A stretch of DNA of 63,386 nt, counting the filler, from Collodictyon triciliatum (lineage: Eukaryota): assembly GCA_043381765.1 (NCBI GenBank). It is 29 parts of 29 records of this genome, joined end to end, with 100 filler letters (N's around TTAATTAATTAA, not from the genome) between each part and the next. Parts side by side here need not be neighbours in the genome. Positions count along the whole stretch, not along the records: positions 61,303 to 63,386 come from JBHJMP010009553.1; 28 more parts are not named here. One strand, given 5' to 3'. Every line of letters starts with the position of its first letter. Positions within the stretch are counted from its first letter, which is position 1. This document shows positions 27,435-63,343 of this stretch, piece by piece. Under the pieces are notes generated by a model. That model worked only from the letters and a program-made list of their open reading frames with translations, was not told the origin of the DNA and did not search any database. A program made the translations under genes and the position numbers.

Positions 27435-28901
27435 GAGGCTTGATATCAAGCAAAACAGATATCAGAATCTCAAATGATATCTTCAAAATCATTACATCCA
27501 TATGGACACCATTCTCGCTCAAGCAAGCTGAAATAAAATCAATAAGTCCGAATCAAAAATGATAGTATAAATCAAAAGTGGTTTCTTCTTTTTTTTATAA
27601 ACTGGGGGTGTTAAATCAAAGTTTCCAGTTTGTATTTGACTTTTACTTCAAGAAGGTTGAACTATACGAGGGAAGGTCAAGGGAACATGGTGGAAAGCAA
27701 ACGTAAGTATGAAAAACTTATTAGTAAAGGCGATTCCTAGAAAGGAATCAGTGACAGCGAGTTTGTTGTGCGAGAATGGCAACAGGTTGGTTGAATGTGA
27801 AGGTATAAGGGACTGTGATGTGATGACGGATATCTTACGACGCTTTCCCAAATCTCCCTTGTCCCATGAACCACACGCGCACCTTTTCATAGCTCTCTGT
27901 CGGAATTATTGAGTAGTAGGGTGCAGTGTTTCGGGAATAAGCTGAAATATTCGGGCTTGCTTTCAGCTTTTGGCTATCGGTAGGCCTATCATGTCTGTGG
28001 TTTACGGTCCATCCACTCATTTTCCCCAGTTTTTAAGGATTCAGGCTGATAAATCTACATCTAAAAAGCTTGGAATGAGACATTTTTATTTCATTCCAAC
28101 AGTTTATTGAGAGAAAACAAAGCCGAGGAACCCGCCTTCGCCTCTAGGACAAGAAATGAGCTGTGGACGAGAATGTGGAAAACTCTGGATTGTGTGGCTG
28201 GAGTTTTTATGTTTTGTGTCTTGGGTGAAAAGAAAAGAAAAAGAAAGAGAAAAAGGAAAAGAGAGAAAGTGTTCTCACACGCAGACTATTCTACCATAAG
28301 TGGTTCAAATCCAACGCGATTTCTGGGTGCATTAAGGACTGAAAGAAGAGCGGATAAAGTTGTCGGGTCGATGAAAGTACGCACATGGCAGCTACTTCTC
28401 ANNNNNNNNNNNNNNNNNNNNNNNNNNNNNNNNNNNNNNNNNNNNTTAATTAATTAANNNNNNNNNNNNNNNNNNNNNNNNNNNNNNNNNNNNNNNNNNN
28501 NAACCCCAATAAAAAACCCCAATAAAAAACCCCAATAAAAAACCCCAATAAAAAACCCCAATAAAAAACCCCAATAAAAAACCCCAATAAAAAACCCCAA
28601 TAAAAACCCATAAAGCTAATAAAGCTAATAAAGCTAATAAAGCTAATAATAATAATCATGTATCCCGACAAACATACCAGTAATAAAAACAATAATTTGT
28701 TGTACCAATATATCTACAACTACTTTTATTCCCACTAGAAAAGAAATAATAATTTACTATGTTCTCCGTTTCGCTTCAAAATAGTTCATCTTTTCTTTTA
28801 TCAAAGACCAAACAATTTTGAATTATTCACACATTCGGTTTTGAATTGATTTTTCTCTAACTTTATATATCACATATTTTCCCCTTACTACTTCACAGCC
28901 C

Positions 28902-30287
28902 GTGATTTATTATTTTGATACAATCCAACAGATATCGGATGTTTGTGAGGCGGCAGATATGGAATTAAAATCCACCTTTCTCAAGTCTAGCCATCAGCAT
29001 CGCATTATTCTGGATATGGTACTCGCCGAGGTAGGACTATACACCTATTTGCGTACTGGGATGAATACGAATTTTTTTTTCACACACCCTATCGTTGAGT
29101 TTTACATAGCATGCATGACAATATCTTATCTATGCCGATGTAAATCATTTGATTCTCACCCACTTAATTCTAATCAGCTGAATGGATTGAGACAAGAAAA
29201 TCTGAAGCAGATTTCCCTCCAGGAAGCACAGGCCCGCATAATCATCAAATCGACAAACTGGAGAACCGCTAAAACCACACAACAAAAGTACAAACAATTG
29301 TTGGCTTCGAGTATCAACTTGCCTAAGAGCGGGTATGTCCGCAGAATTCACCTACAAAAAATTAAATCCATCTCCTTGCTTCCTGATACATCGGAAGGTA
29401 TACTGGAAGCGGACTTCAAAGTGCTGTCCATGGGTTATCCGTTTCTTGAATGGCCCAAACGATTCGATCAGCAGCCTAAAATCATACTCACTTCGGGCCT
29501 AAAATCGGAAGGCAAGATCGAGCTGAAATTCCCTTGGGGACTATCGTATCATCACAACACTGGGGAGCTTTACCTGTCAGAGAATGACGGAGGAGGTGTT
29601 CGAGTGTTTGACCAAAATCTTTGTCCGATTCGTTTCATAACCGACCAAGACAACAAGACCCTCAAAAGAATTATTGGGGCTTGGGGCAACGCTATTTCCC
29701 CAGATGGCTCCCGCATTGTCGTTATAGAGTACAACCGCCAATCAGGTCGGCTTCTGGGCATCGACGGGAAATTCATCTCAGCCATAGAGGAAATGACACC
29801 TGATGGAAAGCTTAGCAACCCTTTCAATGTGGCTTTTGACTCAGCTGGTTTCTTTTACCTAACAGACAGTAACAATAACCGAGTTGTCAAGTACTCACCC
29901 TCCGGGCAATATGTAAGTTCATTCTGGTGTAAAGTGGGGCCCTACCCATTACGTCGCCCGTGTGGCATTACGGTAACTGATGACGATATCATTCTCGTTT
30001 CTCCGTATGGAGGAGGGATTCTATACAGTTTTGATACCGAAGGGAACGTGCTTCGCATATATGATAATGTCATCGAAAAATGTACACTAGCCAACTACTT
30101 GAATCGTGGCGCGGATGGAGGATTCATTTACAGCGACTTTGGAAACGGGAAAGTGACGTGTTACTCGAGGGATTTCCAAGTTGTTGGCGAGATACTTCTT
30201 TCTCATCCTGTGGGTGTGGCGCTAGGTACTGAGGGCAGATTATACATCGCCCAGGGATACAATAGCAAAGCTATATCGCTTTACTAA
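28902..30287 (+). CDS. NHL-repeat beta-propeller protein with upstream coiled coil (TRIM-NHL-like); probable in-frame intron 29031-29177
   Basis: LKFPWGLS, LSNPFNVAFDSAGFFYLTDSNNNRVVKYSPSG, LRRPCGITV, LSHPVGVA repeats. Confidence 0.85.
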   Translation: MIYYFDTIQQISDVCEAADMELKSTFLKSSHQHRIILDMVLAEVGLYTYLRTGMNTNFFFTHPIVEFYIACMTISYLCRCKSFDSHPLNSNQLNGLRQENLKQISLQEAQARIIIKSTNWRTAKTTQQKYKQLLASSINLPKSGYVRRIHLQKIKSISLLPDTSEGILEADFKVLSMGYPFLEWPKRFDQQPKIILTSGLKSEGKIELKFPWGLSYHHNTGELYLSENDGGGVRVFDQNLCPIRFITDQDNKTLKRIIGAWGNAISPDGSRIVVIEYNRQSGRLLGIDGKFISAIEEMTPDGKLSNPFNVAFDSAGFFYLTDSNNNRVVKYSPSGQYVSSFWCKVGPYPLRRPCGITVTDDDIILVSPYGGGILYSFDTEGNVLRIYDNVIEKCTLANYLNRGADGGFIYSDFGNGKVTCYSRDFQVVGEILLSHPVGVALGTEGRLYIAQGYNSKAISLY

Positions 30288-41628: not shown

Positions 41629-43716
41629 ATGTTTATCAGGACTCTATCAAAAAGAAGAAATCATAAAAGATTCAAATTCATGCTACACTTGTCCAAAAGG
41701 CACATTCAACCCAAACTCCGGCTCATATGGATACAAATCATGCATCGAATGTCCACAAGGTACCTGGAATGATAGAGATGGTCAAGCATCATGCACATCA
41801 TGTCCAGCGAGTACATTCAACGATAAAACTGGCTCGTTTAATCAATCATCATGCATTTCATGTCCAAACGGAAGCTACAGCACAGAGAGAAGCTCATCAT
41901 GCACACTATGTTTATCAGGACTCTATCAAAAAGAAGGAATCACAAAAGACTCAAATTCATGCTATACTTGTCTAAAAGGCACATTCAACCCAAACTCCGG
42001 CTCATATGGATACAAATCATGCATCGAATGTCCACAAGGTACCTGGAATGATAGAGATGGTCAAGCATCATGCACGTCATGTCCAGCTGGTACATACAAC
42101 CAAAAAACTGGCTCATTCAATCAATCATCATGCATTTCATGTCCAAACGGAAGCTACAGCACAGAGAGAAGCTCATCATGCACACTATGTTTATCAGGAC
42201 TCTATCAAAAAGAAGGTGTCATTAAAGACTCAAAATCATGCTATTCTTGTCCAAAAGGCACATTCAACTCAATATCCGGCTCATATGGAAATAAATCATG
42301 TATTGAATGTCCACAAGGGACTTGGAATGATAGAGATGGTCAAGCATCATGCACATCATGTCCAGCGAGTACATTCAACGATAAAACTGGCTCGTTTAAC
42401 CTATCATCATGCATATCATGTCCAAACGGAAGCTACAGCTCAGAAAGAAGTATATCATGCAGTTTATGCTTATCAGGATACTATCAAAAAGAAGGAATCA
42501 TAAAAGACTCAGAATCATGCCATGCTTGTCCAAAAGGCACATTCAACTCAATATCCGGCTCATATGGAGACAAGTCATGTATCGAATGTCCACAAGGCAC
42601 TTGGAATGATAGAAATGGTCAAGCATCATGCACATCATGCCCAGCTGGTACATTCAACGACAAAACTGGCTCATCCAATCAATCATCATGTATTTCATGT
42701 CTAAATGGAAGCTACAGCCCAGAAAGAAGCACATCATGCACATTATGCTCATCAGGGTTCTATCAAAAAGAAGGAATCACAAAAGACTCACAATCATGCT
42801 ATGCTTGTCCAAAAGGCACATTTAACTCAAACTCCGGCTCATATGGAAACAAATCATGTATTGAATGTCCACAAGGCACCTGGAATTATAAAGATGGTCA
42901 AGCATCATGTATATCATGTCCAGCTGGTACATTCAACAACAAAACTGGTTCAAATGATAAAACATATTGTATTTCATGTCCGAATGGAAGCTGCAGCTCA
43001 GTTGGGAGTTCATCATGTATTTTATGTTCACCGGGATTATATCAAAAAGAAGGAGTTATAAAAGACTCACAATCATGCTATGCTTGTCCAAAAGGCACAT
43101 TCAACTCAAACTCCGGCTCATATGGAAACTCATTATGCATTGAATGTCTACAAGGCACTTGGAATGATATAGAAGGTCAAGCATCATGCACATCATGTCC
43201 AGCTGGTACATTCAACAACAAAACTGGCTCGTATAATCAATCATCATGTATTCCGTGTCCAAATGGAAGCTACAGCTCCGAGAGAAGCGCATCATGTAGC
43301 TTATGCTTATCAGGATTCTACCAAAAAGAGGGAATCACAAAAGACTCACAATCATGCTATGCTTGTTCAAAAGGCACATTCAACTCAAACTCCGGCTCAT
43401 ATGGAGACAAGTCATGTATTGAATGTCCACAAGGCACCTGGAATGATAGAAATGGTCAAGCATCATGCACATCATGTCCAGCTGGTACATTCAGTAACAA
43501 AACTGGCTCATTTGATGGATTATCATGCATTACATGTCCAGATGGAAGCTACAGCTCCGAGAGAAGCACATCATGCAGCTTATGCTTATCAGGATTCTAT
43601 CAAAAAGAAGGAATCATCAAAGACTCACAATCATGCTATGCTTGTCCAAAAGGCACGTACAACTCAAACTCCGGCTCATATGGAAATAAATCATGTATTG
43701 AATGTCCACAAGGTAC
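41629..43716 (+). repeat. 279-bp tandem repeat array (coding)
   Basis: Matching landmarks 279 nt apart (41727/42006; 41629/41908). Confidence 0.95.
41630..43716 (+). CDS. Cys-rich CxxC-repeat surface protein (ephrin-receptor-like/GCC2-GCC3 type), internal; about 7.5 tandem 93-aa units
   Basis: Frame starting at 41630 is stop-free across the contig: SCYTCPKGTFNPNSGSYGYKSCIECPQGTWNDRDGQASCTSCPASTFNDKTGSFNQSSCISCPNGSYS. The ORF track missed it because it has no in-frame start codon. Confidence 0.9.
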
Positions 43717-61137: not shown

Positions 61138-61202
<65 letters not shown>

Positions 61203-61302
61203 NNNNNNNNNNNNNNNNNNNNNNNNNNNNNNNNNNNNNNNNNNNNTTAATTAATTAANNNNNNNNNNNNNNNNNNNNNNNNNNNNNNNNNNNNNNNNNN
61301 NN

Positions 61303-61420
61303 TGGTAAACCTGGTCTGCTAGTATCCAAGGCCTCACCACTTTTTTCACAAAGATTGTGTAATGGTGAAGACTTTCAGGAAATACCAACAACCTGTTTTT
61401 TAGAGGAGGTGTATGCATTA
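61303..61420 (-). ncRNA. Candidate Fanzor omegaRNA scaffold (truncated by contig end)
   Basis: Lies directly 3' of the Fanzor ORF. Minus-strand hairpin 61370-61332: CUUCACCAUU/AGUGGUGAGG with inner CACAA/UUGUG. Confidence 0.5.
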
Positions 61421-63289
61421 TTGAAGAATTGAAAGAACTTTCTTGAGTATATTTTTAGTGCTGTTAAAGTCCCTTGTCAAGAATACACTTTGTTTGCTTT
61501 CTGAGTGATTGCATTCTTAACACATGAGACATCTATACAACTTTTTTGTATTACCTTTCGGTGTCATATATTCCAGTTCTTTTTCGCAGATACAGCACAT
61601 CTTGGAGGTTCTAAATACATCTACACTAACTGTTTCATAACGTTTGGATGGGATTTTTCGTAATCCCCTTCCGATTGTTGGCATAAAATGGTTCGTCTGA
61701 GATTTTCTACTACAGTCTCCATACGCCAGTACACCATCCTTGTCTACTACCTTCTCAATTTGGTCCATAAACAATGGTTCACTTCTTTTTGTATTAACAT
61801 ACTGTCCCTATATCATCTTTAGAAAAGTCACTTGTTCATAAAATCTGGATAGTTATATCTGTTATCTTGATTTCGTAGATACATATTTTCGAAATTTTTC
61901 ATAATCGACCATTCATGAATTATGTTTACTCAGTTCTGTCTCTAAATCGATTAAAGATGCTCTTGATGTCTCAAACTGGTGATTCTCTTCAAAAGTCATG
62001 TGACCAAAAGAAACAGCACTTTGTAAACCTGTTGCCACGCATACCCCTGAAGCATTATATTTTTCTTTTCTCTCGCGCAAAAGTATTTTGTGATTTTTAA
62101 GAGGTTTGTTATCATGTCTTGTTTTGTGTGCTGAATAACATAATTTCTTACCTGTCTCATCCACCATGTAAACCAAAATTAAAGTTGCGTGCATCCATTT
62201 AACTTTTTTTTTTTTTGTCGCTAATAAAGATAACTGCTCATCGGAAAGCTCATATATATAAACATATTCTTGGTTCTTTTGGTTTATTTGAATTTTGAAT
62301 TTGAAAAACCTTTCTTTTCAAACAATAATGACTCCGCCAAGCCGTCTGCTTGTATCGTGTATTTAAAATTGTAGTCCCTTTGACCAAAATCCTCTTCTTC
62401 ATTTCGTAGAACTTTTCCCATAGGTCTCTTTGCATCCTGATATACTCTTCATTAATGATGTTTTTCTAGTTGATACTAATAGACCTATCAAACATGCAGT
62501 ATCTAGAGTTATATGACATCGTATATTGTTAGTTCTTATAGAGATTGGTTGAAACTTTTTTGTTCCGATGTCTTCAAAAATGCGATTCATGTAAATCAGA
62601 CATGGAATGCACTTGTTTGGGTTGACTTTGGCATCATATTCGATACTATTTACAATGTCGCTGGGAATGATACGATTCAAATGTATTTTAGCCTTTTCTT
62701 TATTGTTCCGGTATGTCGAGTTTCTTGAAGATGACTTTTTTTTAACTTTCGTAACTCTGCCTTTTTAATAGCTTCCGTCATATTCTCATCTTTAGGAACT
62801 GTTTAATTTATAAAGTGCAGTGAACTCTTTACAAAATGCTCCTTGATGTTATTATGATGAGCTGTGAACATTTGCTTCGCCAAGTACGGTAATGCATGAG
62901 ACAGTCCAACCAACGGGGAGCGTTCTTGGGACAAAAGGAATAGAAAATCATTCAGATAAACAGTCATCACGTCATTACTCAAATCTGGTTTTTTAAACTT
63001 GCGGGTATATCTTGTGAAACTATTCCGACTGTCTTTAAAGCGTACAAAAAAAAACAAAAACAAAAACAAAAAACATTTGATTGATTGTTGGGAGTTGTGA
63101 TTTCAATATGTAACATGTTGCAAACAAATAAGTGTCGGTAACCAAATTATGATACAATAAAACCGAATCGTTGGTTTTGTAATAATCATCCGCATTCTTT
63201 ACAATCGACTTTAGAGATGTTTTCACATTTCGATATTCTGGTTTTACAGACTTTAGATTCTCAGGCTCAAGACGTTTTCTTTTCTTCAT
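61418..63289 (-). pseudogene. Fanzor1-type (eukaryotic TnpB/OMEGA) RNA-guided endonuclease, near full length, with multiple stops and frameshifts
   Basis: Collinear blocks: VKTSLKSI; HHNNIKEHF; FQPISIRTNNIRCHITLDT; LVYMVD; AYGDCS...PTIGRGLR...SVDVFRTSKMCCIC (RuvC-II region + Zn finger); YRCLMC*EC; LTRDFNSTKNI (RuvC-III). About 620 codons. Confidence 0.88.
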
Positions 63290-63343
63290 GTGGAAGTCTT
63301 TGTTTTTTGTTTTTGTTTTTTTTTATAGAAAACTACTGAGTCT

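Follow-up and report, generated by a model that had tools for sequence, protein, structure and literature searches.

What is the long, interrupted gene on the minus strand at the end of a 63,386-base stretch of DNA from the Collodictyon triciliatum assembly GCA_043381765.1 (hereafter the window), can any of it still work, and what kind of element carried it there? The window is made of 29 separate contigs of 2,084-2,106 bases each, sorted by falling length and parted by 28 identical linkers (N44-TTAATTAATTAA-N44, e.g. 61203-61302). The gene lies on the last contig (61303-63386), flanked by 97 nt upstream and ~25 nt downstream, and its true genomic context is limited to these 2,084 bases; because the contigs are unlinked and artificially chained, the sequence left of 61303 provides no context for it. 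An earlier note, made from the sequence alone, described a decayed Fanzor1-type nuclease gene of giant-virus style at 61418-63289. A decayed Fanzor1 gene is indeed what we find, and we hold with great confidence that the contig represents a single degraded copy of a compact mobile element that carried Fanzor1.

Extent and family of the gene

The C-terminal 130 codons of the window copy, read with the stop as X, recovered P0001, an intact public protein of 648 aa (66% identity, E = 2.7e-47), from a collection of 5.8 billion proteins; the contig of P0001 is itself 2.6 kb long. By tblastn, P0001 matched the window contig at E = 4e-145 in pieces spread over all three minus frames. A frameshift-aware alignment, made with a purpose-written aligner that places some frame changes only approximately in poorly conserved stretches, joined these pieces from the ATG at 63289 to ~61329, with 376 of 637 aligned codons identical (59%). 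The start proposed earlier stands, and the 3' limit moves, as the gene runs ~90 nt beyond 61418. The limits of the copy and the features of its N-terminal part are as follows.

61329-63289, minus strand: Fanzor1 pseudogene, colinear with residues 1-648 of intact P0001; family hidden Markov model match at 1.2e-99
63272-63289, minus strand: start codon and basic N-terminal MKKRKR, resembling a nuclear localization signal (NLS), read from the sequence
63040-63079, no strand assigned: low-complexity (TTTTG)n-type run inside the open reading frame (ORF), with extra FCFCFC codons and a frame change, absent from P0001

P0001 and the viral relatives have the same N-terminal start as the MKKRKR of the window copy, which may have acted as an NLS. 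The (TTTTG)n run was flagged as a skipped repeat in the comparison with sequencing-run contigs. Inverted (AAAAC)n arms of 32 nt (63043-63074 and 63296-63327, 88% complementary) flank the first ~72 pseudogene codons and probably arose through microsatellite growth.

When P0001 was compared with all PDB sequences, the solved Fanzor1 proteins GtFz1 (Guillardia theta; 9cer-9cet; E = 2.1e-28), PpFz1 (Parasitella parasitica; 9cf0-9cf3; 2.7e-24) and SpuFz1 (Spizellomyces punctatus; 8gkh, 9ceu-9cez; 3.7e-23) were found, followed by noise. The broken copy itself, read through across 61418-62764, also matched solved Fanzor1 proteins (PpFz1 at 1.7e-7, SpuFz1 at 1.9e-5). A family profile built from 42 full-length members (A1, 612 positions) matched SpuFz1 at 9.1e-104 over profile positions 7-600, PpFz1 at 8.2e-102 and GtFz1 at 5.6e-75. 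At E <= 0.01 the only further matches were two TranC chains (~8e-4), and neither Fanzor2 nor TnpB was matched at this threshold. Applied to six-frame translations of the 29 contigs, the same profile matched only the last contig (1.2e-99); on the other 28, neither the family profile nor sequence comparison found a second Fanzor1 copy. An exhaustive HMMER search retrieved 3,147 representative clusters at E <= 0.001, 537 of them at <= 1e-30.

The fold was examined on the intact sibling P0001 rather than on the broken window copy. Its AlphaFold2 model (predicted local confidence score, pLDDT, 85.5) was searched with Foldseek, and the top seven matches were all Fanzor1 chains, with query-normalized TM-scores (TMq) of 0.61-0.74; SpuFz reached a TMq of 0.74 and a target-normalized score of 0.79-0.80. 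The Fanzor2 protein ApmFz2 (rank 27, TMq 0.20) and TnpB (TMq 0.19-0.22) followed at ranks 27-33, and identity with either was rejected. The profile and structure comparison against Fanzor1, Fanzor2 and TnpB proposed in the earlier note thus gave a clear Fanzor1 match, and on homology and predicted fold the gene is a Fanzor1.

The family resembles the solved Fanzor1 proteins in full-length sequence and fold homology and in size (~620-650 aa), and P0001 shares with them the DPG motif, the alternative Glu six residues ahead of the zinc finger, the CxxC...CxxC pairs and the RD. It differs from them in an identity of only ~18-20%, and the window copy differs further as a pseudogene without the DPG and Glu. 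Fanzor2 and TnpB have a compact TnpB-like architecture of about 400-500 aa, nearest to IS607-type TnpB. With Fanzor2 (mimivirus ApmFz2, 9b0l) and TnpB (8h1j, 8iaz) the family has the RuvC core, zinc finger and RNA-guided logic in common, whereas its long N-terminal REC-type region aligns to Fanzor1 only. The C-terminal motifs quoted in the earlier note are all present in the window copy (LAYGDCS, MPTIGRGLRK, SVDVFRTSKMCCIC, CLMC followed by a stop, and FLTRDFNSTKNIL). Pfam returned only sub-threshold matches for the five ORF pieces of this copy; a precomputed PF26935 label on P0001 was absent from the local Pfam scan and was not used. No match was found by tblastn against phage records.

Lost catalytic positions, stops and frame changes

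Yoon et al. (PMC10711439) define Fanzors by a DPG at RuvC-I and by an alternative Glu that precedes the zinc finger by six residues. P0001 keeps the DPG at residue 364, E555 followed by six residues and CCNC, and the RD at RuvC-III. Among its aligned relatives (alignment A1), D364, P365, E555, R603 and D604 are invariant (42/42); as literal patterns, 33 of the 42 contain DPG and 34 contain E-x6-CxxC. The corresponding positions of the window copy are listed below.

62187-62195, minus strand: RuvC-I remnant D-A-R, out of frame with either flank, with frame changes at ~62200 and ~62177
61616-61618, minus strand: Val at the alternative RuvC-II Glu position (SVDVFRTSK), facing E555 of P0001
61586-61597, minus strand: first zinc-finger CxxC (CCIC), from sequence and alignment, with a weak PF07282 match (E = 0.0055)
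61520-61531, minus strand: second zinc-finger CxxC (CLMC), from sequence and alignment
61469-61474, minus strand: RuvC-III Arg-Asp (TRDFNS), retained, from alignment to P0001

Two of the three catalytic positions are therefore gone from the window copy, the DPG having become DAR and the alternative Glu Val, and the CxxC...CxxC pairs and the RuvC-III Asp are kept, with a TAA separating the second CxxC from the RuvC-III RD. Both losses had been recognized earlier, as a missing DPG near 62190 and a Val at the RuvC-II Glu; the first site, read from 62195 to 62187, lies in an offset frame, and the second faces a residue invariant in the family. Because P0001 has the DPG and its D and P are found in every aligned relative, the motif was lost through decay and was not missing from the lineage.

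Alignment to P0001 placed seven in-frame stops in the copy (four TAA, two TGA and one TAG), of which six lie inside 61418-63289, where at least five had been claimed. It also gave 11 frame changes, several within A-runs, in agreement with the frameshifts reported before. An uninterrupted coding sequence is thus not found. The stops are as follows.

62803-62805, minus strand: TAA, a sense codon in 9/9 covering related contigs of sequencing run X5
61913-61915, minus strand: TGA, spanned by an identical 83-nt lake-metagenome contig (X2 record 11)
61862-61864, minus strand: TAA, spanned by identical metagenome contigs of two studies (records 3 and 10)
61853-61855, minus strand: TAA, spanned by identical metagenome contigs of two studies (records 3 and 10)
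61808-61810, minus strand: TAG facing a Trp of P0001, a sense codon in 7/7 X5 contigs; identical stop-bearing contigs in X1 and X2
61517-61519, minus strand: TAA inside the zinc finger, directly after CLMC
61375-61377, minus strand: TGA in the C-terminal tail, a sense codon in 3/3 covering X5 contigs

Lake-metagenome contigs of two studies are 100% identical to the window over four of these stops (X1 record 3, 61724-61874; X2 record 10, 61736-61905; X2 record 11, 61876-61958), where X3 mirrors X2 and one metagenome study may be the source sample itself. The stops are real. Lake and freshwater metagenomes contain fragments identical to the copy; parts of the contig have no cover in X1-X3. For several independent reasons the window copy is dead: it cannot produce a protein and is a fossil without present nuclease function.

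Less-damaged siblings exist, as the X5 contigs all carry sense codons at three of the seven stop positions. Run X5, which is labelled with an organism, holds 309 related contigs at 80-99% identity (16 at >=99%, 59 at 95-99%, 137 at 90-95% and 97 below 90%), and the family is therefore multi-copy. Up to 17 of these contigs lie over one position, and related cover extends to the 3' end of the window contig; some show small length differences near three of the frame changes. Seven sequencing runs match the contig in all, with shares of 0.05-0.09 each, and none is listed as RNA, X5 being at most a guessed RNA run. In Jiang et al. (PMC10530073), 3,655 unique Fanzors are reported, with several copies per genome, N-terminal NLSs and an association with Mariner/Tc1 elements among others.

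Giant-virus relatives and their terminal module

When IMG/VR was scanned with an alignment of seven sequences, 288 of 369 candidates proved to be relatives, many of them on contigs of giant-virus metagenome-assembled genomes (GVMAGs), at no more than 47% identity to full-length P0001. In 75 of the 80 loci kept (L002-L081) the ORF is at least 580 aa long, and the best viral protein among them, that of L002, is 37% identical to the window copy. A BFVD fold search with P0001 returned Hyperionvirus first (5.7e-41), then Homavirus, Yasminevirus and Klosneuvirus, all four with TMq 0.78-0.81, and a metagenome scan added a single distant relative, L001, among 184 pattern matches. The description of the gene as giant-virus style holds as a resemblance, with the nearest relatives of known context in GVMAGs; it does not imply that the contig itself is viral.

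Across contexts, the viral copies have a sharp 3' boundary ~80 nt past the stop, at ...GGTGTAAA, and 5' boundaries either ~430 or ~40-60 nt ahead of the ATG. The units are mostly Fanzor-only, ~2.0-2.4 kb long, with a conserved right end and in some cases an inverted left copy. In L002, by comparison, a repeat unit (3631-6952) on a 254-kb giant-virus contig holds Fanzor1 and a transposase together, the latter a divergent 346-aa DDE_3 and HTH_28 protein (3638-4678, minus strand; DDE_3 at 1.3e-13). Between the two genes of L002 lies a 69-aa ORF (4740-4949) with no Pfam match. L036 and L049 are two Fanzor1 copies on one 67-kb viral contig; L049 has no high-identity match to L036, its best being 92% to L011 and then 82-90% to other contigs, which suggests independent insertions and not a recent duplication.

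The last ~145 nt of the viral copies straddle the stop codon and form covarying stems (e.g. L036:6762-6906; L008-L081), with compensatory changes in 5 of 24 predicted pairs, one of which occurs as UA in 20, CG in 12 and AU in 10 sequences. Because this 3' module spans the stop codon, structured RNA also codes for the conserved C-terminal peptide (..ISSFTSS..EEKVRPS), and the module is likely the omegaRNA scaffold. In L017 a ~50-nt G+C-rich palindromic insertion sits in the loop of stem 1 (3758-3952). A covariance model of the module (R1), built from 43 viral relatives, found L001-L007 overall, with matches to L001 at 1.6e-6, L003 and L005 at 0.004, L004 at 0.0076 and L002 at 0.038. In L001, L044, L081 and L024 it further picked out part of the module a second time, inverted on the other strand directly ahead of the gene; these copies are terminal inverted repeats. 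The protein of L001 is only ~22% identical to the main viral clade. Fanzor1 genes as far apart as this share a near-identical terminal module, in which the right inverted repeat coincides with the 3' end of a covarying RNA structure. L001, from a lake metagenome, has near-perfect ~30-nt terminal inverted repeats (1972-2003 and 4183-4215) flanked by TA; their sequence is nearly the same as that of the viral terminal module, the ends being far more conserved than the nuclease. Such a shared module could aid omegaRNA annotation in viral Fanzor1 elements, whose general architecture is already in print.

A study of a Chlamydomonas giant endogenous virus (bioRxiv 10.1101/2024.09.03.611062, PMC11398304) describes Fanzor1 elements that encode an IS630-Tc1-mariner transposase, others that have only the Fanzor and a right-end guide, and degraded copies; it also reports a related Fanzor1 fragment in a host chromosome and the sharing of elements between giant endogenous viruses and their hosts. 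Compared with what is described there, L002 likewise pairs Fanzor1 with a DDE_3 transposase, most viral loci are likewise Fanzor-only and conserve the right end, and the window copy can be classed with the degraded or fragmentary copies. Unlike those viral elements, the window contig shows no transposase, terminal inverted repeat or TA duplication. It has no room for a transposase and no terminal inverted repeat links its ends, where only the low-complexity (AAAAC)n arms were found, and a Tc1/mariner-IS630 element is thus not recognizable on the contig. The RNA fold of its 3' 228 nt (61303-61530) is not distinctive (z = -1.87; 8/200 shuffles equally good) and includes one further feature.

61331-61372, minus strand: two-tier hairpin in the last codons, within the fold of 61303-61530

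By eye, this hairpin is possibly the counterpart of stem 1 of the viral module.

Origin of the copy

Fanzor1 proteins are eukaryotic and giant-virus descendants of TnpB, RuvC nucleases that take their omegaRNA from the 3' end of their own element and cut DNA that the guide matches. Other work on them reportedly includes that of Saito et al. in 2023 and of Bao and Jurka in 2013. The window copy is the fossil of a past transposition, presumably in cellular DNA, within a multi-copy family of graded divergence. The closest relatives of this family are found in giant viruses, where the elements have terminal inverted repeats at their ends and resemble Tc1/mariner-IS630, and the carrier may have been of this type. 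Intact members would act in the known Fanzor1 manner, as nuclear RuvC nucleases whose guiding omegaRNA is transcribed from the 3' part of the ORF through to the right end of the element. They would cut DNA matching the guide and, by analogy with TnpB (PMC10690162), would thereby retain or home the element.

That the gene is really intact, its stops and frame changes reflecting assembly or sequencing error, introns or a non-standard code, is highly improbable. Several frame changes do fall in homopolymer A-runs, and eukaryotic Fanzor genes can carry introns according to PMC10530073, but the stops lie within well-aligned conserved blocks, metagenome contigs from two studies reproduce four of them exactly, and apart from one microsatellite there is no intron-sized insertion relative to P0001. 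Nor does a variant code rescue the gene: TAA, TGA and TAG are all represented among the stops, and elsewhere in the window the standard code gives contigs with ORFs of 480-727 codons. The two substituted catalytic positions, moreover, are invariant in the family and their loss is irrespective of reading frame.

It is considerably less improbable, although still unlikely, that the contig belongs to a giant virus, free or endogenised, rather than being a transposon copy in ordinary cellular DNA. The nearest relatives of known context are in GVMAGs (288/369, with L002 on a 254-kb contig), the top BFVD matches are giant-virus proteins, identical fragments occur in lake and freshwater metagenomes, and giant endogenous viruses reportedly carry Fanzor1 elements and share them with hosts (PMC11398304). 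However, the best viral protein is only 37% identical to the window copy, which is heavily decayed whereas 75/80 viral copies are intact, and the 309 X5 contigs, with their graded identities of 80-99%, look like an old cellular repeat family. A viral-contig scan with P0001 alone gave no relatives among 36 pattern matches, and the contig has no flanking gene to decide. Quite improbable, too, is a copy whose protein is dead but whose ends or omegaRNA intact members would still use in trans, so that it persists as a non-autonomous element or a source of RNA. In its favour, a giant endogenous virus is described as having units made up of a Fanzor gene and a right-end guide alone, along with non-autonomous copies that have degraded (PMC11398304), and the hairpin at 61331-61372 looks by eye like stem 1 of the viral module; the element ends, however, are not on the contig, no terminal inverted repeat joins its ends, R1 gives no match at its 3' end and the fold z is only -1.87.

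Several points weigh against reading the contig as a dead copy of a Fanzor1 element. PF07282 (Cas12f1-like_TNB) stayed below threshold for both the window piece (E = 0.0055) and P0001 (E = 0.11). No intact copy closer than P0001 (55-59% identity) was found, P0001 being the sole match at E <= 0.001 among 93 candidates. The number of real frameshifts is uncertain, because A-runs often carry assembly errors. As the contig ends ~25 nt past the ORF, the omegaRNA, right end, terminal inverted repeat, target-site duplication and target-adjacent motif cannot be defined here. R1 gave no match at the contig 3' end; with filters off, its best hits on the contig (E = 0.2-0.6) fell in low-complexity stretches, none of them at the 3' end. 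Finally, the contig is assignable neither to cell nor to virus.

A dead Fanzor1 element nevertheless remains the reading that we prefer: the fossil in the window is genuine but unremarkable, and the family to which it belongs is well known. It matters little alone, adding one diverged dead sequence to a family of thousands, and it records past Fanzor1-element activity in the source organism. The earlier suggestion that intact siblings would be a new programmable-nuclease family member was overstated: an intact protein does exist in P0001, with only 55-59% identity to the window copy, but 3,147 clusters of the family are already represented. The lineage may even be listed in the tables of Fanzor surveys. 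Fanzor1 elements in giant viruses and their hosts, degraded copies included, have been described (PMC11398304, PMC10530073). The distance of the window copy to known sequences is 55-59% identity to the nearest public protein and 37% to the nearest giant-virus protein. We consider it conceivable, if rather doubtful, that a separate Fanzor1 lineage passed between giant viruses and a eukaryote living in fresh water and left this copy as its relic, with intact active copies still among the X5 siblings at 80-99% identity. Because the family is multi-copy in one sequenced organism and is also present in lake samples, intact natural copies might be recoverable.

Rfam, at the gathering threshold, gave no matches in the entire window. 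Among the other contigs, a (GA)n microsatellite (61150-61202) runs up to the end of the contig that precedes the Fanzor1 copy, where the assembly probably broke. An ORF of 480 codons at 28845-30287 (plus strand) encodes NHL repeats (E = 8e-12). A contig-long open frame at 41629-43716 (plus strand; 695 codons read) contains 13 Ephrin_rec_like repeats (E = 8e-108) and also matches NCD3G and TNFR-type cysteine-rich domains; it encodes a eukaryote-type cysteine-rich repeat protein.

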